A DNA stretch of 35,265 nt. Source: a virus (taxonomy: Duplodnaviria > Heunggongvirae > Uroviricota > Caudoviricetes). Shown one piece after another: positions 2,299 to 29,978 of this stretch (its first letter is position 1; every line of letters starts with the position of its first letter). Below the pieces are notes generated by a model. It was not told where the DNA came from, searched no databases, and saw nothing but the letters and a program-made list of their open reading frames with translations. The DNA lies in the IMG/VR virus record IMGVR_UViG_2579778866_000006, one strand, 5' to 3'. A program made the position numbers and the translations under genes.

Positions 2299-3483
2299 AT
2301 GAGTGAAACTCGTTTTCATGGTGCCCGTGTTACGGAAAGTACCGACCTGGTAACAGCGATTAATGATGTTGATTCCAGTGTTATCGGTATCGTGGCAACG
2401 GCGGATGATGCGGATGCGGAGCTGTTCCCGCTGAACAAGCCCACACTGCTGACCCGCGTCAATGACGTGCTGGGAAAATGCGGAACAACGGGGACGCTTT
2501 ATCGTGCGCTTAAGGCCATCGCAGACCAGGTGAGCACAAAGGTGATCGTCGTTCGCGTGGCTGAACACAAAGAAGAAGACGGAAAAACGCAGGATCAACT
2601 GGTTATCGGTGGTTCTGAATCTGACGGCAGCTATACGGGGATGTATGCGCTGCTTGTTGCAGAGCAGGATGAAAGCATCGGATACCGTCCGCGTATTCTG
2701 GCCGCGCCGGAGCTGGACACGGAGGCGGTAACAAAATCCCTGTGCGTGATTGCGGGTAAACTGCGCGCGTTTGTGTATGCCTCATGTCACGGCTGTAACA
2801 CGATGGCTGAGGCGATTACCTACCGCCAGAAATTCAACGAACGTGAGGTGATGCTCTTATGGCCGGACTTCATCGCCTACAACCCGAAAAGTGGCAAAAA
2901 CGAAACGTTCCCCGCGCCTGCCTATGCGTGCGGCCTTCGTGCGTACATTGACCATGAGCAGGGCTGGCACAAATCGCTGTCCAACGTTCCGGTTAAAAAT
3001 GTGCTGGGGATGTCCAGGCATGTGTTCTGGTCGTTGCAGGCCGAAGACAGTGATGCCAACAGCCTCAACAACAAAGAAATCACGACCATTATTCGTCGCA
3101 ACGGGTTCCGTTTCTGGGGCAACCGCACCCCGGAAACGAACGCCTACATCTTTGAGGTGTATACCCGAACCGCACAGGTGCTGGCTGATTCAATTGCGGA
3201 AGCGCAGTTTGAAACCATCGACAGTCCACTGACGCCTGCGAACGTGAAAGATGTTATCAGTGCCATCAGGGCAAAACTGGATTCACTGGTTACTGCCGGG
3301 AAACTGATTGGGGCGTCGTGCTGGTATGACGTGGTGGATAACGGCACCACGAATTTACGTCAGGGGCGCGTGCGTATTCGCTACAAATATACGCCTGTTC
3401 CCCCGCTGGAAGACATGGAGCTTTACCAGTCGTTTACTGATGAATTCTTTGGTCCCGCATTTGCGGTGCTGGGAGGTGCCTGA
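2299..3483 (+). CDS. FI: Contractile tail sheath protein FI
   Basis: 394 aa; conserved blocks shared with P2 FI (ADDADAELFPLNKP, RAFVYASCHGCNTMAEAITYRQKF, WPDFIAYN, EQGWHKSLSNV, RRNGFRFWGNRT, YTPVPPLE). Confidence 0.95.
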   Translation: MSETRFHGARVTESTDLVTAINDVDSSVIGIVATADDADAELFPLNKPTLLTRVNDVLGKCGTTGTLYRALKAIADQVSTKVIVVRVAEHKEEDGKTQDQLVIGGSESDGSYTGMYALLVAEQDESIGYRPRILAAPELDTEAVTKSLCVIAGKLRAFVYASCHGCNTMAEAITYRQKFNEREVMLLWPDFIAYNPKSGKNETFPAPAYACGLRAYIDHEQGWHKSLSNVPVKNVLGMSRHVFWSLQAEDSDANSLNNKEITTIIRRNGFRFWGNRTPETNAYIFEVYTRTAQVLADSIAEAQFETIDSPLTPANVKDVISAIRAKLDSLVTAGKLIGASCWYDVVDNGTTNLRQGRVRIRYKYTPVPPLEDMELYQSFTDEFFGPAFAVLGGA

Positions 3484-18084: not shown

Positions 18085-18885
18085 TTAACCGCGCTTCGCC
18101 TTCTGCGTCGCGGTGGTTTTTCGTGTTGCAGGCTTCCGCGTTGTCTTTTTACTTTTGCTGCTTTCGTCCTGCGCCTGCTGTGCGCTGTCGTCTTCTGGTT
18201 CGGTTGCGGAATCGGCTTTTTTCAGGGCGCGGGAAAGGGTTGCAATCTCGCGTTTCACACCTGCGTTCGGGTTCAGGTGCATTGCTTCACGCAGCAGCTT
18301 CAGTGACAGGGCCATGCTGTCCGCATCGCTCAGGCCACGGCGGGCAAAGGCGCACGCCTTGCATAATTTGGCGCGCACTTCGTCCGGCATGTCCTGGTCG
18401 GTGACAATCTCCCGGAGGGTGTCCAGTGGTTCGATAAAGGCGGACAAATCCGCGTCGGCATCCGTCCCGGCCTGCGTCAGTACCGGATTGCAGATTTCTT
18501 CGGTCAGTACCGTGGCAGCAGTACGGCCAAAGTTATCCGGCATGATGAGGTTGTGACGGACCACATACGCACCAATACGCAGCGCAAGCGGAAGATCGCC
18601 GCAGTCAATCGCCCACACCATCAGCGTGGCAATCACTTCGTCCTGCTGCCCGCCGTCAGCCTCCAGCGTTCCCTCAATCCAGCCGGAAAAGTCCGGCAAC
18701 AACTCTTTTTTGATGGCGGCTTTCGCGCTTCTGGCCTGTACGCCCTTAAGCCGGGCCTGTGCCAGACGCAGACGATACAGCACCTCTTCATGCGCGGTAC
18801 GCGCGGCATGGTCCACGCCTTCATTCGCCCGGCCTGCGCGCTGTGCCATCACGTTCTGCCAGTGTTGCTGTGCAGGAGTAATCAT
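18085..18885 (-). CDS. M: Terminase small (endonuclease) subunit M
   Basis: 266 aa; position after the capsid gene in the P2 order O-N-M-L. Confidence 0.8.
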   Translation of the reverse strand: MITPAQQHWQNVMAQRAGRANEGVDHAARTAHEEVLYRLRLAQARLKGVQARSAKAAIKKELLPDFSGWIEGTLEADGGQQDEVIATLMVWAIDCGDLPLALRIGAYVVRHNLIMPDNFGRTAATVLTEEICNPVLTQAGTDADADLSAFIEPLDTLREIVTDQDMPDEVRAKLCKACAFARRGLSDADSMALSLKLLREAMHLNPNAGVKREIATLSRALKKADSATEPEDDSAQQAQDESSKSKKTTRKPATRKTTATQKAKRG

Positions 18886-20997: not shown

Positions 20998-22749
20998 ATG
21001 ATTCAGGACGCTTTTGTGCGCCAGCGTGCGCGGCAACTTTACTGGCAGGGTTATCCGCCCGCAGAAATATCACGTCTGATGGGAATAAACCCGAACACGA
21101 TTTATGCGTGGAAAAAACGCGACCAGTGGGATGAAACGCCACCCGTGCAGCGTGTCACGCAGTCCATTGATGCGCGCCTCATCCAGCTTACTGAAAAACA
21201 GAATAAAACAGGCGGTGACTTTAAGGAAATAGACCTGCTGACCCGGCAGCTTAAAAAGCTGCATGATGGCCAGCCGGATGTGATGGCCGCAGGAAAGAAA
21301 GGCCGGGCGAAAAAACTCAAAAATCATTTCACGCCGGAACAGATTGCCGCACTGCGGGAAAAAATCATCAGCAGGCTGGAGTGGCATCAGCGGGGCTGGT
21401 TTGACTCCCTGACCCTTTGCAGGGAAGCCGGGATACGTAACAGGATGATCCTGAAATCCCGACAGATTGGGGCGACCTGGTATTTTGCACAGGAAGCACT
21501 GCTGATGGCGCTGCGTGACGATGTGGCGCAACCTTACCAGCGTAACCAGATTTTTTTGTCTGCGTCGCGTCGTCAGGCGTTCCAGTTTAAAAGCATTATT
21601 CAGAAGGCCGCGGCTGAAGTTGATGTGGAGCTGAAAGGGGGCGATAAAATCATCCTCTCCAACGGCGCAGAGCTGCATTTTCTCGGCACTTCTGCTGCGT
21701 CGGCACAGTCCTATACGGGCAATTTTTATTTTGATGAATTTTTCTGGGTCAGTCGCTTTGCTGAACTGCGCAAGGTGGCTGGCGCTATGGCAACCCTCAG
21801 CGGACTGCGGCGCACCTACTTCTCCACGCCATCCACCGAAACGCACGAGGCATACGCCTACTGGAACGGCGACCGCTGGAACGAGAAAAAGGCCTCGCAT
21901 AAACGCCAGCGTTTTTCTGTGGACTGGAAGACGCTGCATAACGGACTTATCTGCCCTGACCGGACATGGCGGCAGATTGTCACGCTGGAAGATGTGGTTA
22001 ATCACGGCTGGAAACACACCGATATTGACGAAATCCGTGATGAAAACACCGAAGACGAGTTCCTCAATCTCTACATGTGTGAGTTTGTCCGCGAAGGGGA
22101 ATCGGCATTTAACCTGAATATCCTGATTGGCTGCGGCGTTGACGGATACGACGACTGGAAAGACTGGAAACCTTTTGCTCCCCGCCCGATGGGAAATCGT
22201 CCGGTATGGATTGGGTATGACGCAAACGGCAGCAGTGGCAATGGCGACAGCGGCGCTGTGTCCGTGGTGGTTCCTCCGGCTGTTCCTGGTGGCCGTTTTC
22301 GAACGGTGGAGACGCGACGCGTTCAGGGGCTGGAGTTTGAAGAACAGGCCAGAGTCATTGAAGAGTTCACGTGTCGCTACAACGTGGAACACATCGGTAT
22401 TGATGTGACGGGCGGGAACGGGGAGGCTGTTTATCAGATAGTGAAACGGTTTTTCCCTGCTGCTATTCCGTACACCTTCACGCTGTCATCAAAACGGTCG
22501 CTGGTACTGAAAATGCTGCAAATAATGCGTGCCGGGCGGTGGGAATACGATCGCGCCGAACGCGAGCTGGTCGCGGCCTTTAACGCCGTGCGTAAGGTGA
22601 AAACACCGGGCGGCTTTATCACTTACGAAACGGACCGCGCGAGGGGGATCAGCCACGGCGACCTTGCGTGGGCAACCATGCTTGCTGTCATTAACGAACC
22701 GATTGGCGGCGAAGGAGAAAACGAGCGTTTCACGGTTATGGAGTTCTGA
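20998..22749 (+). CDS. P: Terminase large (ATPase) subunit P
   Basis: 583 aa; divergent from O and followed by the portal gene with overlapping stop/start, as in P2. Confidence 0.9.
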   Translation: MIQDAFVRQRARQLYWQGYPPAEISRLMGINPNTIYAWKKRDQWDETPPVQRVTQSIDARLIQLTEKQNKTGGDFKEIDLLTRQLKKLHDGQPDVMAAGKKGRAKKLKNHFTPEQIAALREKIISRLEWHQRGWFDSLTLCREAGIRNRMILKSRQIGATWYFAQEALLMALRDDVAQPYQRNQIFLSASRRQAFQFKSIIQKAAAEVDVELKGGDKIILSNGAELHFLGTSAASAQSYTGNFYFDEFFWVSRFAELRKVAGAMATLSGLRRTYFSTPSTETHEAYAYWNGDRWNEKKASHKRQRFSVDWKTLHNGLICPDRTWRQIVTLEDVVNHGWKHTDIDEIRDENTEDEFLNLYMCEFVREGESAFNLNILIGCGVDGYDDWKDWKPFAPRPMGNRPVWIGYDANGSSGNGDSGAVSVVVPPAVPGGRFRTVETRRVQGLEFEEQARVIEEFTCRYNVEHIGIDVTGGNGEAVYQIVKRFFPAAIPYTFTLSSKRSLVLKMLQIMRAGRWEYDRAERELVAAFNAVRKVKTPGGFITYETDRARGISHGDLAWATMLAVINEPIGGEGENERFTVMEF

Positions 22750-23795
22750 TGAGCAGAAAAAATAAAAAAGTGCGCATGAGTTCACGCATTGATCTCGCTG
22801 ATGCGCTCAGGAAAGAATCATCGCTCAGTGCATTCACATTTGATGGTCCTTATCGCCTGACCGGGCATGACCTGCTGGACAATATGTACTGTGCTGATAA
22901 CGGGCGGTGGTATGAAACCCCGGTGGACTGGTACGGTCTGGCAAGAGCTGCCCGGCAAACGTCCTGGCATCAGTCTGCGCTTTACTTTAAGCGTAATGTA
23001 TTGCTCGGCTGCTATATTCCGCATCCGCTGCTTTCCCGGCAGGATTTCTCGGCGCTGGCGCTGGACTGGTTTGTGTTCGGTAACGCATTCCTTGAGCTTC
23101 GGAGCAATATGCTCGGCGAACCGCTTAAATTACGGCACGCCCTGGCGAAATACATGCGACGCGGAAGCGATCTTGAATCATGGTGGTATGTGCAGGATGG
23201 CAAGGACGCGTTTCAGTTTCGCCCTGGCAAAGTGTGCCACCTGATGAATCCTGACATTAACCAGGAAATCTACGGCATGCCGGAATATCTCGGCGCATTA
23301 CTCTCGGCCAGCCTGTCTCATTCGGCGGACATGTTCAGAAAACTGTATTACGACAACGGATCCCACGCCGGGTGTATCATCTACATCGGTGCAGCGCAGG
23401 TAAACCGCGAAAGCATGGACTCCCTGAAAGAAACGCTACAGGGTGCACGTGGTGGTGGTGCGTTTAAAAACGTGCTCATTCATGCGCCCAACGGGGGCAA
23501 AGAAGGTGTGCAAATTTTGCCGTTCCAGCAGATCACCGCAAAGGATGAGTTCATGAATGTTAAGGCGGCATCCCGTGATGATGTGCTGGCTGCGCACCGC
23601 GTTCCGCCGCAACTGATGGGGGCGATGCCGGGTGAAAAAAGTGCGTTTGGTGATGTGGAAAAGGCCGCGCGGGTTTACGCAATTAACGAGCTGATGCCCG
23701 TTATGGAGGCCATGAAGCACATCAATGACTGGCTTGGCGAAGAGGTGATCCGTTTTAATTCTTATGCTCTTCTTGATGAAAAAACAGCCCCGTGA
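22749..23795 (+). CDS. Q: Portal protein Q
   Basis: 348 aa; immediately follows P; size matches P2 Q. Confidence 0.9.
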   Translation: MSRKNKKVRMSSRIDLADALRKESSLSAFTFDGPYRLTGHDLLDNMYCADNGRWYETPVDWYGLARAARQTSWHQSALYFKRNVLLGCYIPHPLLSRQDFSALALDWFVFGNAFLELRSNMLGEPLKLRHALAKYMRRGSDLESWWYVQDGKDAFQFRPGKVCHLMNPDINQEIYGMPEYLGALLSASLSHSADMFRKLYYDNGSHAGCIIYIGAAQVNRESMDSLKETLQGARGGGAFKNVLIHAPNGGKEGVQILPFQQITAKDEFMNVKAASRDDVLAAHRVPPQLMGAMPGEKSAFGDVEKAARVYAINELMPVMEAMKHINDWLGEEVIRFNSYALLDEKTAP

Positions 23796-23815
23796 TGGGG
23801 CTGTCCTTTTTACCA
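23781..23815. terminator. Bidirectional terminator shared by convergent Q and the 175-aa cargo gene
   Basis: Stem cagcccc / ggggctg with 5-nt loop, flanked by an A-run and a T-run. Confidence 0.65.
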
Positions 23816-24335
23816 GAGTTGAACCATTTTCTGGGTGCCGTCAGGCTTGAGATTATCAATTTCAGAGAGAACGTAATATTGAATGGCTTCACAAACGGTG
23901 GTGTATGGTGAATTACCTTCTTTAAGTGGCACGATATTATTATTAACGCGAACCTGTATTTCATCGTTATACATTGCGATCGAAAGAGGAGTATGCACGA
24001 AGGCGACTTCGCCAGGTGTGTCGTCAACCACTGTCTCAATGCTGAAAATCAGTTTTCGCTCATCATTGCCGCCCCTTGCTTTGGGGGTAGCGGCAGGAAT
24101 CTGAGATAAAGGCATTCTGCGAAACCCTTCAGCCGTTTCCAGTCCGCATGAAACGTAATGCTGGCGATTACCGTCGCTATCCGTCCATGTCTGTGATGGC
24201 AGCTCCAGAGAGATTTCATAAGCATCAACAATTCCCTGGGCAATGCGTACAAGCGGGGTCAGGTCTTCATTGCGGCGAAAACTCTCCTTTACCTGATCTC
24301 GTTTTTCTCGTAACTGCTTGTAATTAATGACCATA
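23810..24335 (-). CDS. Hypothetical protein (175 aa), cargo gene at the Q-proximal accessory hotspot
   Basis: Start placed at the ATG (MVINYKQL) preceded by GGAGG with a 7-nt spacer; no similarity to anything I recognise. Confidence 0.6.
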
Positions 24336-24832
24336 GAACAGCCTCCATTGATTTCTTTGCTCGTATTTTGCACTTATGAAGTGTGGTCGGCAAGGTGCCG
24401 CATCACTGACGCGCTTCGCTTGTCTGCTGCTTCGCCGGGGCATAAAAAATTTATGCCCCGACTCTCCAGCTCCTGTATCAATCAGATAATTTCGCGACGT
24501 CTTCCGACTTATCGCTATCATCGACGGCCAGACTCTTACACAATCCCGCCGCGCTGACTGCATGTTCTCGCCGCCTCAGTGCGATTTTGACGGCCTTACC
24601 TTTCATCCCATCAAATCAGAACACCTTACGTCTTTTTCACGCTCAGCGTGAGCGATACAGCCATTCTGTTGTGTCGCTGCGACATCGTTCAGGGAATGCT
24701 ATTTACCCCCTGAAACGCGGGCTGTTCCCCCGTCACCTGCGCGCAGAAAAAACGCGTTTTTTTGTGCACGCACGGATCCCTGACGGATCCAGCCGCCACG
24801 CGGGCCGGAAGGGCAAAAAGTCGTTCAAAAAA

Positions 24833-24862
24833 ATTGTGCAAATTTGTGCACTATTGTGCATT
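24833..24862. repeat. Three helically phased direct repeats of TTGTGCA (10-bp period)
   Basis: attgtgcaaatttgtgcactattgtgcattg in the non-coding region downstream of the 135-aa gene. Confidence 0.5.
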
Positions 24863-24893
24863 GAAATAAACGCTCTGGAGGAGGGCGTTTTAC

Positions 24894-25301
24894 TTATCTT
24901 TTATAGCCTTGCCCCTTCCTGGCCAGCGCCCTGATGGCCGGGCGTGCCAACACCATATTTTGGCAATGATGAATTGCCCGGCAAAATTCATCTCTACCCA
25001 TTGGATGCTCAACTGGCAATGTTAAATACAGGTTCCATGCGTCGCCTAAAAGTTGGGCTATCTTTTGTTCTTCAGATGTCAGCAAGCAAGCGGTATCCGT
25101 AAAATAATCATACTTTTCATGTATGTTATTTAACGGTTTTGTCTGTAGTGCAGCCTGAGCTATACGGTATGCCTGAAGCATACGGGCGTCGTTGATATCC
25201 ATTCCGAACGGAATTTCTGATGATTGTGACTCTGCATCTTCAAGCCTGGCAATTTCTTTACGTAAGAAGTATTTCAACTCTTGTTTCTGTTTTCTGTTCA
25301 T
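24894..25301 (-). CDS. Hypothetical protein (135 aa), cargo gene
   Basis: ORF on the same strand as A/parMR, with a ribosome-binding site; followed by a terminator-like hairpin; no recognisable domain. Confidence 0.55.
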   Translation of the reverse strand: MNRKQKQELKYFLRKEIARLEDAESQSSEIPFGMDINDARMLQAYRIAQAALQTKPLNNIHEKYDYFTDTACLLTSEEQKIAQLLGDAWNLYLTLPVEHPMGRDEFCRAIHHCQNMVLARPAIRALARKGQGYKR

Positions 25302-25369
25302 GCTTTTTTTCCTTTTTCTCTGTCAATGTGTTGCATTGTGTCCCCCTTGTTTATGTTCCCGGATTAAAG

Positions 25370-25394
25370 TCATCAGGGCGGATGCGCCCTGATG
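25370..25394 (-). terminator. Hairpin directly downstream of the parR-like gene
   Basis: Stem catcagggcg / cgccctgatg with 3-nt loop; weak T-tract. Confidence 0.4.
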
Positions 25395-25399
25395 TTGTG

Positions 25400-25711
25400 T
25401 TATTCGGGAAATAACGCCCGGATATTTCCGGCCATCTGACTGGTTATCTGTGCGGTTGATACTGGCTGTGACGCGGGGCATTCTGTCCTGGTTTGTGTCA
25501 CTGATAACGCCTCATCGTCAGCCCATGCAGCCAGTCGGTAAGCCTCTGCCGGATTCATTTTCAGAAGTGCCAGCCCGGCCAGAAAAGCCACGCGTTGGCC
25601 GCTTTTGCGGGCTTCTGGTGTAAGGCTGTCCAGCCAGGCGCATGCTTCGCTTTCGTTCTTGACGGCCGCAGGCTTCAGATAGAAACTTATCCGTCTGGTT
25701 GGTGTCGTCAT
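25400..25711 (-). CDS. ParR-like small protein downstream of parM (putative centromere-binding adaptor)
   Basis: ATG (MTTPTRR) lies 4 nt after the parM stop, with AGGAG overlapping that stop; about 103 aa. Assignment rests on position and size only. Confidence 0.45.
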   Translation of the reverse strand: MTTPTRRISFYLKPAAVKNESEACAWLDSLTPEARKSGQRVAFLAGLALLKMNPAEAYRLAAWADDEALSVTQTRTECPASQPVSTAQITSQMAGNIRALFPE

Positions 25712-25715
25712 TGGT

Positions 25716-26675
25716 TTACTCCTTGTCCATTGCGTACAGCCCATTAACCAGAGCAAACTGTGGCACCCCGTCCGCGATGAAAGTCGCATTAACTCCGCAG
25801 GCTTCGCGGATAGCGGGTGCCACAATCTCCGTCCCGCCACCGACAACCATCACCCGCCCGTAACCCGAAAAACCCGCCAGCGCGCGGATCACGCGTTGTT
25901 TCAGTGTTTCTTCCTTTTCACGAATAACCGCCATCAGGCTGGCGTAATGCGCGTCATTGTGGATGTGCTGGCGCAGCCAGGCTTCATCATGGCGATGTTC
26001 GATAATGGTATTGGCGATGTGGTGACTGGTGCGCATACCGTTAGTGGCCATCACCGACAGTACGGCATCGGCCATCAGAGAAACGCCTACGTGTGGATCG
26101 CAAAACACCTGGCTGATACCTGCCAGTTGCCCCTGAACCTTTGCCACATCCAGCGTGGTTCCGCCCAAATCCACAATCAGCAGGGATTCAAACGGACTCA
26201 TGTCAGCCAGTGCTTTAAAGCCAGCCGGAATAGATTCAGGCATAACCCGCACGTTACGGATAGTGAATGCCTCGCCGTTCTGGTACTCCACCGGGCGCAT
26301 AACGTTCGCTTTTTTGCGGTTGATGTTGGCCATGTCCGGCTGTGCGTTTGTGTCGAAATACTCGCTCAGTGGCAGGGTGACAACCACATCCACCTCCTGT
26401 GGCGTGATGCCTGATTTGACCAGCGCATGATGAATGGCAATGACATTCACATCGCTGTACTGGTATTGCGTGTCGGTCGTCTGGACAAAGCGATCGCTGA
26501 CCGGATCAAAACCATAGCGCACGCCATCAAGCATGTAGTTCGCGGGCTGCGTGCCACCGAACGGCGCAGACCATTCCGACTTGAAGCTGTTCGGGCTGAT
26601 GGCGTTGCGGCGTTCGCCGTTCTCAGTCCATGCCAGCTTGATGTTGGTGGAGCCGTCGTCGATACAAATTTTCAT
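25716..26675 (-). CDS. parM: ParM/StbA-family actin-like ATPase (plasmid segregation protein homologue)
   Basis: 319 aa; strong resemblance along the whole length to plasmid R1 ParM (IDDGSTNIKL, SPNSFK, QYSDVNV.A.HHAL, ANF/ANV, VMPESIPAG, LLI.DLGGTTLD, FSGY..VMV.GGG, LVNG.Y). Confidence 0.85.
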   Translation of the reverse strand: MKICIDDGSTNIKLAWTENGERRNAISPNSFKSEWSAPFGGTQPANYMLDGVRYGFDPVSDRFVQTTDTQYQYSDVNVIAIHHALVKSGITPQEVDVVVTLPLSEYFDTNAQPDMANINRKKANVMRPVEYQNGEAFTIRNVRVMPESIPAGFKALADMSPFESLLIVDLGGTTLDVAKVQGQLAGISQVFCDPHVGVSLMADAVLSVMATNGMRTSHHIANTIIEHRHDEAWLRQHIHNDAHYASLMAVIREKEETLKQRVIRALAGFSGYGRVMVVGGGTEIVAPAIREACGVNATFIADGVPQFALVNGLYAMDKE

Positions 26676-26751
26676 GTCGCTTTTCCTTATGTTGATTAAT
26701 TAATCGTTTACAGGATTTTTAAATCCCACTTTTGCCTGTTTTGTGCGCGCT

Positions 26752-29592
26752 TCATATATCGCTGCGCGTTTTTTGCTCATTTACGGGATTCGTGAGTCCC
26801 GTTTCTGTCTGTTTTTTGTTTCCACTGGTCAGGCCACCCCGCAGCAGGTCTGCTTTGCGGCTGGCGCGTTCAGTGGTTTCACTGATTCTCTGTGTGTGCT
26901 CTGCGTCGCGGATGGCGCGCAGCATGTCAGAAAGCACGGTAACGGGTGTTTTCATGGTGTTCTGGTCCTGCTGAAGTGTGGATGCCAGGCGTGCGGCGGC
27001 TTCAGGGTCTGATGCCCCCAGCTGTGCCAGATAGCTGGCGACCGGGTTATGGCGGATCTCCGTGCTGCTTACGCCATGATTACGGCTCAGGCGCTGCCAG
27101 AGCTGCGTGATTCGGCTGTCCGGGCGGGTATCCGGTTTGCGTACAATTTCAAATCCCTGCGGTGCAATGATGCTGCCGTCAACGTACAGACTGCCGCCCC
27201 GTAACAGGTGCTGCATCTGTTGTTCACCGATATGCAGGCCGAGAGATTCAGCAGACTCCCGCCATTCTTTAGCGAGTAATTCGTGGTTATCAGGCAAAGG
27301 CCGCTGCTGTTTACGGCTCTGTGTCCAGCTCTGCATTTCATCACTGCTGTTTTTTGCCTGTTTGTCACGAAGCGAACGCATCAGCGCCCGGCGTTCGTGC
27401 CGTTTCAGTGAGCGCATCCATTCGTTCACTTCAACGCCGTCAGGGAGCTGCGGCCACGGTACTGGCCGTTCTTCCGGCTGTTCTGTCCCGTTGTTGTCCG
27501 TTTCCTGTACACGGGGACAGTTATTGCCACGAGTCCAAGGGGCGGCAGGGCCGCCCTGAAGGTCAAAACCATTTTCGCGGGCGCTGTCTTCCGCTTCCGG
27601 TTTACGTCTTACCAGCTTCCAGTTATCCGGGTGCGTGCACACGCGGGAAGACTCCCCGATGAGCGGCGACCAGATCCCGTAAATCTGTACACTCTGCTCG
27701 CCGTAATCGTTCAGCTCATCTGCGAGGTCGTAGGCGGTGCGAATCAGGTAGTCTTTGCGTGGAACAAGTACGCCACCCTGTTTCTCAATGTAGGTGGCAA
27801 AACATCCGGCATCAGCGGCAGCGAGTACCGCGTCCATTGCGTCATCCTTCAGCCGTTGCGGGCCTTCCGGGTTGCGTGCCATCTGGCTGGCAAGGCGGCG
27901 CAGTTCACGCCACACCTGACGGGAGGGGATACCAAAGAACTGGAACTGGCGGACCCGGTGAAGGCGCGCCCAGCCGATGGCGCGTTCCACGCTCTCGGCC
28001 ATTGATTTTCCGGTTTCGTGGTCAACGCGTGGCTTGCCCGTTTTCGGGTCGATGCCATCCACGGCGCGGCTGTCCAGGTTCTTTCCGATGTAGGTGGCGA
28101 TGTAGCTGGTTGGTGTGCCTTTTGAGCCGTCGACATACTCCACCTTAAAGCGCGGAGTAATATCATTGCCCAGCTCGTGGCGGTCTTCCTGAATGGCAAT
28201 ATCGCGGGTGATGGCCACGATGCTGTCGATTTCTTCCGGATGAGCAAAGACCATCATGTGCCAGTGCACGGTGCCGTCATGGTGAGGCTCCACCGTGCGG
28301 ATGCCATACCAGCGCAGGCCGTCGCGGTTCAGTTTTTTGCGGACCGCCGCAAAAAACGTGTTAACCAGGTAATCGCTGGAGTCGCGCATGGTGGCCCCGT
28401 TCCATTTGGGGTTCGGATGACCGTTCTCCGTTGTTGCGTGGTATTTTGACGGGCAGGTGACAGTCAGAAACACCGCTCTGTCGCCACGGGCTTCGGCCAG
28501 AAGTTCCAGTCCCTTCATGGTGGCCATCATTTCTGCCTTACGGTGGACCGGGTTACTTACTCCCGCGTAATACACCGTCTCGAGATCAATCGTGAACCCG
28601 TCTTCGTTTTCCAGCATGAAACTTTTCAGGAAATCGCGTGTTTTCTCGCGCTGTGCGCGAAACTCGCTTAACGCGTCCTGGCTCAGATAGGGCGATGTTT
28701 TTCTGGAAACCAGACAGGCGGCGCGGAGTTGTTCTTCCCGCCACTCGCAACGTAACAGCCACAGTTTGCGTTTCCACCATTCTGCACAGGTCAGGCGGAG
28801 GATTGCGCCCGGCAGCAGTTCCGTGTCCGGTTCGTTCTTGCGGTCTTTGTCTGTTGTCAGTGCGTCATAATGTGGAGGCATGGCGTGCAGGTGTAACGCC
28901 ATGCGGGCCAGCATCTGATACGCCTTCAGTGCCACCTCCATGGTCAGCTCACCATCGGTCGCGCCAAAGCCATCGCAGAGTTTTTCGAAGGTGCTGCTGA
29001 ACATCGCCGCCGTCATGGTGGCCAGCGTCTGTATCTGGTGCTTGTTGAGCTGCGGCAGGTAAAGCAAATCATCCAGGCGTTCGCGTCCGGCAAGGGAGCG
29101 ATAACCCGGTGTCAGCCAGCGGTGGTCGGTGCGGTCCAGGCGTTCGAATATTTTGCGCAGGGTTCCGCGCGCGTAGCGTTCAGCCTGCCAGCTCTTTTTG
29201 CCTTTCTGGCGATCGGCTTCCTGTTTTTTGCGCAGGAAAGAGAGGTGGCGGCTCAGAGGTTCACGCAGATAAACGGGAAGCACCTTCAGTGTGGCAAAAG
29301 CACGGGCTACCGGGTCTTGTTCTGTTGCCCGGCGCTTACTGATGATGCTCTGAGCCAGCTTTTCACGCTGTCCGGCTTCCTCAAGGGATGCCATGAGTTT
29401 TTTACCCATGGCGGATTGTGCGAAAAAGGCTTCCTCCTTCGCTTCCTGTTCTTCCCGGGCCTTTTTGTCCGCCTCAAGGTAGTAACGGATGGCGCGTTGC
29501 AGGTCGGTTTCAGTTTCCTGCCTGCGCTCCGTAAATCTGGCCGGATCAATGGCTGGTCGTGGTTCATTCCAGCTCCATGCAAACTCACTCAT
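26752..29592 (-). CDS. A: Replication initiation endonuclease A (rolling-circle initiator)
   Basis: Large ORF at the end of the early operon with P2/186 A-family features (HWHMMVF histidine motif, YIATYIGKNLD); start placed at MSEFAWSW, whose ATG overlaps the upstream stop (ATGA). Longer than P2 A. Confidence 0.85.
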   Translation of the reverse strand: MSEFAWSWNEPRPAIDPARFTERRQETETDLQRAIRYYLEADKKAREEQEAKEEAFFAQSAMGKKLMASLEEAGQREKLAQSIISKRRATEQDPVARAFATLKVLPVYLREPLSRHLSFLRKKQEADRQKGKKSWQAERYARGTLRKIFERLDRTDHRWLTPGYRSLAGRERLDDLLYLPQLNKHQIQTLATMTAAMFSSTFEKLCDGFGATDGELTMEVALKAYQMLARMALHLHAMPPHYDALTTDKDRKNEPDTELLPGAILRLTCAEWWKRKLWLLRCEWREEQLRAACLVSRKTSPYLSQDALSEFRAQREKTRDFLKSFMLENEDGFTIDLETVYYAGVSNPVHRKAEMMATMKGLELLAEARGDRAVFLTVTCPSKYHATTENGHPNPKWNGATMRDSSDYLVNTFFAAVRKKLNRDGLRWYGIRTVEPHHDGTVHWHMMVFAHPEEIDSIVAITRDIAIQEDRHELGNDITPRFKVEYVDGSKGTPTSYIATYIGKNLDSRAVDGIDPKTGKPRVDHETGKSMAESVERAIGWARLHRVRQFQFFGIPSRQVWRELRRLASQMARNPEGPQRLKDDAMDAVLAAADAGCFATYIEKQGGVLVPRKDYLIRTAYDLADELNDYGEQSVQIYGIWSPLIGESSRVCTHPDNWKLVRRKPEAEDSARENGFDLQGGPAAPWTRGNNCPRVQETDNNGTEQPEERPVPWPQLPDGVEVNEWMRSLKRHERRALMRSLRDKQAKNSSDEMQSWTQSRKQQRPLPDNHELLAKEWRESAESLGLHIGEQQMQHLLRGGSLYVDGSIIAPQGFEIVRKPDTRPDSRITQLWQRLSRNHGVSSTEIRHNPVASYLAQLGASDPEAAARLASTLQQDQNTMKTPVTVLSDMLRAIRDAEHTQRISETTERASRKADLLRGGLTSGNKKQTETGLTNPVNEQKTRSDI

Positions 29593-29978
29593 GGCTGGTA
29601 TCCCGTCACGCGCTGCCACTCCTGCGAGAAGATGGCGGAAAGGCGGTCAAATTCAGCGGTGTATTCACTCAGCGAGGCACACCCGCCAGCAGTGCGATGC
29701 GCCAGTATTGCCGCAAATACGGAGGCCGGGGAGTCGTAATACGCCAGTAGTGATTCGCCGTGTGGTGTCAGGCAGTGCAACGCCAGCCCGTGTGGTGTGA
29801 AGTCCACGCGGTAGCAGTCGTCTACTGTGAAATAAAGGGTGTCTGCATTCTCCGGTTTTGTGGTGCGTGCTCTGTTGTCACGACCACGGATGTAGAGATC
29901 AAATAATCCCTGAAGAACGGGAGCCAGACGGGTGTCCTGTGTGCGCACCCATCTTGTGAAGTCATGAGCGTCAATCAT
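29589..29978 (-). CDS. Hypothetical early protein (129 aa)
   Basis: ORF translationally coupled to A (ATGA overlap). Confidence 0.6.
   Translation of the reverse strand: MIDAHDFTRWVRTQDTRLAPVLQGLFDLYIRGRDNRARTTKPENADTLYFTVDDCYRVDFTPHGLALHCLTPHGESLLAYYDSPASVFAAILAHRTAGGCASLSEYTAEFDRLSAIFSQEWQRVTGYQP

Follow-up and report, generated by a model that had tools for sequence, protein, structure and literature searches.

The cos site of phage lambda is organised as cosQ, cosN and cosB, with an IHF site and with R3, R2 and R1 sites to which gpNu1, the small terminase subunit, binds. The cos sites of P2, 186 and P4 have 19-nt 5' cohesive ends and a 55-bp core that Ziermann and Calendar reportedly described in 1990. 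In the P2 helper and its satellite P4, cos is the only shared sequence, and a cos-adjacent cargo hotspot lies between gpA and gpQ (PMC9122126). According to the passages of PMC5694545 that cite them, Dodd and Egan (1996) recognised the interval from cos to Q as a site of foreign DNA uptake, and Fujiwara et al. (2008) mapped a cohesive end of the Ralstonia phage phiRSA1 that starts GGTGAGGCGGGG. Our literature search, whose reach did not extend to the 1990 paper of Ziermann and Calendar, returned no description of a P88-type cos or of a TGCA-box geometry, and no report of gpM binding to TGCA boxes in any P2-like phage.

Here we analyze a locus within a 35,265-nt stretch of viral DNA (the window) that belongs to a P88-like prophage (Xuanwuvirus, Peduoviridae). 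An earlier note, made from the letters alone, had described positions 24336-24893 as a single structured non-coding hub, and had offered four roles for it: a cos/packaging site, a parC-like centromere, an operator array or a small RNA. The sequence features that it listed are all present, with small corrections to coordinates and count. The hub is better described as five adjacent parts, of which one is the cos core; the others are the leader of an inserted cargo gene, a displaced post-portal hairpin, a spacer specific to the lineage and a terminator that belongs to the cargo (Table 1). We conclude, with a probability of roughly 85%, that 24701-24860 is the cos site of this P2-family prophage, with nicks and terminase binding that are predicted from sequence. 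This is the first of the four roles, and location, box spacing, conservation and satellite sharing all agree with it. P2-family cos sites are well known, and this element is a diverged example of them, essential but ordinary. What might be new is a four-box geometry that is kept across very divergent packaging proteins, and box flavours that are common to helpers and satellites.

Table 1. Features of the locus in window coordinates, followed by TGCA offsets (nt) in five elements
Feature	Position	Strand	Basis or remark
TerS (gpM)	18085-18885	minus	Pfam
TerL (gpP)	20998-22749		Pfam
Portal	22749-23795		Pfam
Cargo insertion between portal and cos	23759-24405		647 bp replacing 33 bp of P88; local alignment
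Terminator-like hairpin from the insertion	23784-23804		terminator scan
174-aa cargo ORF	23810-24334	minus	
Leader upstream of 174-aa ORF	24336-24405		first 70 nt of the interval
Perfect 11-bp hairpin	24436-24460	plus	CGGGGCATAAA/TTTATGCCCCG, loop AAA
Lineage-specific non-coding spacer	24461-24700		holds dyad 24637-24653
Palindrome	24639-24653		CGCTCAGCGTGAGCG
Most invariant block of the family, holding the predicted nick segment	24701-24744	minus	conservation and cos19 similarity
Predicted cohesive-end segment	24719-24739		reads 5'-GGTGACGGGGGAACAGCCC on minus strand (24737 down to 24719); predicted within about 2 nt
Segment from nick region to R4	24737-24772		palindromes CTGCGCGCAG and AAAAAACGCGTTTTTT form an imperfect dyad with 15-nt arms
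Palindrome	24737-24746		CTGCGCGCAG
Palindrome	24747-24762		AAAAAACGCGTTTTTT
Box R4 (fourth TTGTGCA)	24762-24768	plus	TGCA at +37 from C-run
R4-to-triplet spacer	24770-24825		length fixed, sequence variable; holds GGATCC-N5-GGATCC (24774-24790)
Palindrome	24774-24790		GGATCCCTGACGGATCC
A-tract and box triplet (distal arm of cos)	24826-24860	plus	R1 24834-24840, R2 24844-24850, R3 24854-24860
Hairpin just past stop of 135-aa ORF (cargo terminator-like site)	24868-24890	minus	
135-aa cargo ORF, right after R3	24894-25301	minus	
ParR/StbB-like (Plasmid_stab_B)	25400-25846	minus	Pfam
ParM	25716-26675	minus	Pfam: StbA_N E 1e-82, ParM_N E 6e-68
Replication gene A homologue	26752-29619		
TGCA offsets, window	+37, +109, +119, +129		
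TGCA offsets, P2	+37, +109, +119, +131		
TGCA offsets, 186	+37, +109, +119, +128/132		
TGCA offsets, P4	+37, +109, +119, +132		
TGCA offsets, phiRSA1 (Ralstonia)	+37, +108, +118, +137		

The location of the core is established by gene order. The portal gene is followed by the core and then by gene A, and the same layout, with cos after the portal gene, is found in P2 and 186. In P88 and most relatives, the portal stop codon leads straight into the stretch that matches 24406-24860, at the location of cos in P2 and 186. In the window it is set apart by inserted cargo: local alignment matches 23501-23758 and 24406-24727 to P88, and the insertion between them rewrites the last ~12 codons of the portal gene. 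Portal-to-cos distances in other relatives are usually 192-319 nt, with further values of 487, 892 and 932 nt. On the other side, the sequence past 24860 differs between relatives and travels with the cargo variant, so the hairpin there belongs to the cargo and not to cos; 24861-24893 is a cargo terminator, accessory to cos. Neither the 174-aa nor the 135-aa cargo ORF had a match in Pfam or PADLOC. Of the 143 related loci that carry the box array, 14 have the 174-aa ORF and 27 the 135-aa ORF. The 559 nt between the ATG of the former (24334) and the stop of the latter (24894) are probably non-coding, as the earlier note had it, the only ORF that relatives annotate inside being one without codon-position bias.

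The hairpin that precedes the core has the perfect stem described earlier, at a position 8 nt higher than the approximate 24428-24452 first given. As RNA it folds with -26.4 kcal/mol (z = -3.9), and none of 200 shuffled sequences was as stable. In P88-type relatives it lies ~35 nt past the portal stop, and each of the other lineages carries a GC-rich hairpin of its own there, some with T-runs. In P2, the terminator tQ, which follows the P-Q (terminase-portal) operon, is annotated 5 nt after Q. The hairpin is the positional equivalent of tQ, displaced from the portal gene by the insertion. No T-run follows it on either strand and the terminator scan did not call it. It fails the canonical definition of a Rho-independent terminator and may nonetheless act as tQ does. 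The spacer that separates the hairpin from the core is ~92% identical among P88-like phages and cannot be aligned with that of other lineages.

The TTGTGCA boxes give the core its most regular feature. The exact 10-bp phasing of the distal copies is as the earlier note described; the count is four and not three, with the additional copy (R4) lying toward the portal gene. The window contains seven TTGTGCA copies on both strands combined, against 9.3 expected, and four of the seven fall within 99 nt on one strand. Because the window-wide count is unremarkable, this clustering is far beyond chance. The other palindromes reported were all found (Table 1); most palindromes are lineage-specific, and the GGATCC pair and the AT palindrome occur in the P88 lineage only.

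The geometry of the boxes is shared with P2, 186 and P4. We circularised the ends of these three genomes, read them in the portal direction and took the C-run of the cohesive-end segment (CCCCG) as the zero point for offsets. Alignment with the cos regions of P2 and 186 had been proposed as a check, and in it the TGCA boxes are colinear. This colinearity holds despite the divergence of the packaging proteins, which are 36% (TerS), 44% (TerL) and 47% (portal) identical to those of P2. The 12-13 nt after GCGCGC differ between lineages, and the T-run and GTGCA that follow are invariant (TTTT.GTGCA, in alignment A1 and in 36 representatives of less than 90% identity). The spacer between R4 and the triplet is constant in length to ~1 nt in most lineages, with at most three gap columns in the most divergent rows of the 36 representatives; the ~65 nt that match it also differ among P2, 186 and P4. 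The A-tract and box triplet are kept in all lineages examined and in satellites. One IMG/VR locus (L071) has lost 82 nt, so that R4 directly abuts the R2/R3 boxes (...GCGCGTTTTTTGTGCACTATTGTGCAG...), the product expected if the direct TTGTGCAC repeats recombined. This locus has only a 30% portal match upstream; its cos may be crippled and the element itself decayed.

We identified a candidate cohesive-end segment within the most invariant block. The earlier note had found no match to the P2 cohesive end; a candidate match lies at 24719-24739, on the expected strand and side of the portal gene. The segment GGTGACGGGGGAACAGCCC is identical to the P2 end GGCGAGGCGGGGAAAGCAC at 13 of 19 positions without gaps, and at 10 of 19 in the register set by spacing, a likeness of sequence only. 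It is oriented as expected, with the 5' end of the G-rich strand on the portal side, and it starts with GGTGA, as does the phiRSA1 end. The equivalent of the 19-nt P2 end falls at 24721-24739 by box register and at 24719-24737 by sequence, a disagreement of 2 nt, and the nick positions and overhang length given here are predictions. Two loci from IMG/VR (L138 and L176) have CCCCGCCTCGCC at the position of the nick segment, which matches P2 cos19 at 12 of 12 nt. Both appear as hybrid cos sites, with a half-site identical to P2, a P88-type flank (TGCGCGC) and TTGTGCA boxes. Their TGCA boxes lie at +37, +109 and +119, the spacing of P2, and their packaging genes are ~67% identical to those of the window.

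Conservation of the core extends well beyond this prophage. The 155 bp from 24716 to 24870 are present in 1150 of 5426 complete E. coli genomes, and similarity across these 1150 stops at 24860-24863, just past the third box, with diverse cargo beyond. This boundary agrees with the cos-adjacent hotspot between gpA and gpQ. A scan of IMG/VR with 17 nt of the core gave at least 120 loci, with at least 104 distinct downstream sequences among the matches listed; nearly all of the matches listed lie behind portal genes 67-100% identical to that of the window. Across 74 sequences, polymorphism is zero at 24728-24742, by construction, as these positions are inside the 17-nt collecting pattern, and amounts to one site at 24713-24727, outside it. 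The block 24701-24744 is kept beyond the search pattern in the 36 representatives and in satellites. In the representatives it reads ...GCG.GGGCT...CCCCCGTCACCTGCGCGC and is followed by 12-13 variable nt, TTTTT.GTGCA, a ~65-nt spacer of fixed length and largely free sequence, the distal end CAAAAAAA-TTGTGCA-N3-TTGTGCA-N3-TTGTGCA, and then unrelated cargo.

The core is also shared with satellite-like elements, as is cos between P2 and P4. A 145-bp core at 79.5% identity was detected in an E. coli island next to hpt (L009; NZ_CM132655.1, ~2727883-2736881). The island encodes an integrase, a toprim primase, an Icd-like protein, an ogr/Delta-like zinc finger and a P2-family major capsid protein, and no portal, terminase or tail genes were found in it. 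Four further satellite-like loci (L040, L163, L179 and L185) carry the core and have neither portal nor terminase genes, and one of them has a P4-like integrase. The capsid-encoding island looks like a relative of P4-like satellites matched to P88-type helpers.

The other roles proposed for the interval would place its function outside packaging. ParM and ParR-like genes lie 0.5-1.8 kb from the TTGTGCA repeats, and short phased repeats are typical of centromeres, so the array could be a parC-like centromere bound by the ParR-like protein. We consider this extremely unlikely. In type II loci (R1 parMRC, NR1 stb) the centromere is upstream of parM; here the repeats lie ~540 nt downstream of parR and are separated from it by another ORF. 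A better candidate is directly upstream of parM, where two 42-nt repeats, each with a dyad, span 26704-26818. These direct repeats are 74% identical, 73 nt apart and contain the dyads GGGACTCacGAATCCCG and GGGATTTaaAAATCCTG; on the upstream side of parM, which starts at 26675, they run into the 3' end of gene A, and they are a candidate parC or operator for the ParM/ParR system. Nor is the box array co-inherited with ParM: of 74 relatives that carry it and for which at least 4.5 kb of sequence past it was available, 34 have no ParM homologue in that stretch, and the array occurs in satellite-like islands as well. TGCA boxes lie at the same offsets in P2, 186, P4 and phiRSA1, and P2, 186 and P4 are not known to encode ParMR. 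The interval might instead serve as a small RNA, a small protein or an operator array for the flanking cargo genes, a reading that the stable hairpin, the promoter that the 174-aa ORF must have within its leader, and hypothetical ORFs of 42-47 aa annotated in P88 and P88_4B11 would favor. It too is very unlikely. A search of both strands of 23700-25400 against Rfam (E up to 1) gave no match, and we found neither a sigma-70-like site within 24336-24893 nor a promoter-plus-terminator pair in the interval, which leaves the small-RNA and operator-array readings without support. The conserved elements persist whatever the cargo on either side. In the 42-aa ORF (24478-24606, minus), polymorphisms are spread over codon positions as 18:19:15 with no codon-phase signal; its start codon is variable, and the frame is broken by stop codons or frameshifts in several homologues. 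Hypothetical small ORFs that the annotations of P88 (L002, KP063541: locus 3077-3205 and 3225-3368) and P88_4B11 place in the spacer are probably spurious.

A different objection accepts a cos site and concerns where it is cut. The linear record LR595891 (P88_4B11) is cut exactly between 24815 and 24816, inside the cos spacer, and P2-type records of the same study start at or within cos19. The adjacent G-rich 24797-24815 (ACGCGGGCCGGAAGGGCA) is loosely like GGCGGGGAAAGCAC and is conserved in one satellite family, so the nicks could lie in the R4-triplet spacer. We regard this as unlikely. Nucleotide 1 of LR595891 was chosen relative to reference genomes and not from read termini (PMC6969025), which makes the break, 76 nt off, weak counter-evidence to 24719-24739. 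The segment 24797-24815 is not conserved in several lineages (L016, L017, L036, L088, L099 and L117) that keep all boxes and the 24701-24744 block, and nicks there would break colinearity with P2, 186, P4 and phiRSA1. Contig ends at 24781, 24783 and 24798 (L119, L060 and L025) were considered as physical ends and discarded: L060 and L140 proved to be neighbouring pieces of a single contig, and so the ends of IMG/VR loci are storage boundaries and not DNA ends. A search of the phage collection with the core of another lineage returned no further linear records ending in the site. One record, LR595869.1 (P2_2H4; L132 and L133), has Nextera adapter remnants at both ends and a break inside cos19. 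Nicks at the AT palindrome (24747-24764) or at 24784-24802 (GCGTGGCGG, 186-like) were also rejected. These positions came from an alignment anchored on TGCGCGC, on the basis that in P2 cos19 is followed by TGCGCGC-TGACGG, and the TGCA offsets gave the colinear register.

Taking 24701-24860 as cos, we propose a mechanism in which it would act in cis as the element by which terminase recognizes replicated DNA, makes two staggered nicks, and starts or ends packaging. Read in the portal sense, it has the P2-family layout: a predicted nick segment, a short dyad, R4 at +37, a free spacer of fixed length, and three boxes one helical turn apart. Terminase would read R4 together with the phased triplet R1-R3. 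From the analogous R sites in the cosB of lambda, we infer that the box-binding protein is most likely the small subunit gpM, and the triplet is a probable terminase (gpM) binding array. The fixed spacer may set the geometry by which the box-bound protein positions the large subunit gpP on the nick segment. There gpP would nick within the invariant block, leaving 5' cohesive ends of ~19 nt (predicted at 24719-24739).

More tentatively, the four TGCA boxes could be a geometry-locked terminase code that is common to all Peduoviridae, in which box flavour (TTGTGCA in the P88 type, GTGCAT in P2, 186 and P4) and cohesive-end variant together define packaging 'specificity types'. We hold this somewhat short of even odds. 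If true, specificity types would decide which satellites a helper mobilises, and hybrid cos sites such as those of L138 and L176 would be switches between them.

Assignment of the cos site fixes the expected genome ends, and with them the correct linear map, for a prophage lineage that roughly one in five complete E. coli genomes carries; the linear break points of public records of the P88-type lineage are arbitrary. It also delimits both cargo hotspots, one of which starts at 24861, after R3, and the other of which is bounded by the portal stop and the post-portal hairpin. Overall, the locus offers a compact model, open to test, of how the terminase of P2-like phages recognizes its DNA and of how helpers and satellites are matched.

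As in type II parC loci, there are short phased direct repeats near parM and parR, but the array stands on the opposite side of the operon from a centromere, is not tied to ParM across relatives, and is kept with packaging genes and in satellites. The likeness to lambda cos is one of outline, by analogy: a nick site is flanked on one side by short repeats of fixed spacing that recruit, or here would recruit, terminase. In contrast to lambda, which has 12-nt ends, the ends predicted here are ~19 nt; repeat number, orientation and spacing differ, there is no sequence homology, and gpM binding here is putative. The phiRSA1 cos is closer. Its end and the segment predicted here both start GGTGA(G/C), and its TGCA boxes likewise lie at +37 and near +108 and +118, whereas the phage belongs to another genus and host, its R4 is of the TTTTAATGCA type, as in 186 and P4, and its last box is at +137.

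The closest relatives are the cos sites of P2, 186 and P4, from which the site differs in detail. The box is TTGTGCA(A/C) here and (G/T)TGCAT in those three phages, and the third distal box is at +129 instead of the +131/132 of P2 and P4. The 19 nt from nick to R4 form an AT-rich palindrome, unlike the GC-rich hairpin CCGCCCCGTGAAGCGGGCGG of P2, and GCGCGC adjoins the nick segment on the R4 side and not, as in those phages, on the portal side. The cohesive-end segment, with ends predicted from sequence, is identical to that of P2 at 10-13 of 19 positions, and the portal-to-cos distance is ~930 nt, against ~310 nt in P88 and 167 nt in P2. What the site shares with P2, 186 and P4 is its plan: it lies past the portal gene, toward gene A and the cargo hotspot; its predicted cohesive-end segment is G-rich and has a GGxGA...CGGGG.AA core of like orientation; and its TGCA boxes lie at exactly +37, +109 and +119 from the C-run, with a last one near +130. 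As in P2 and P4, the core is common to helper phages and satellites.
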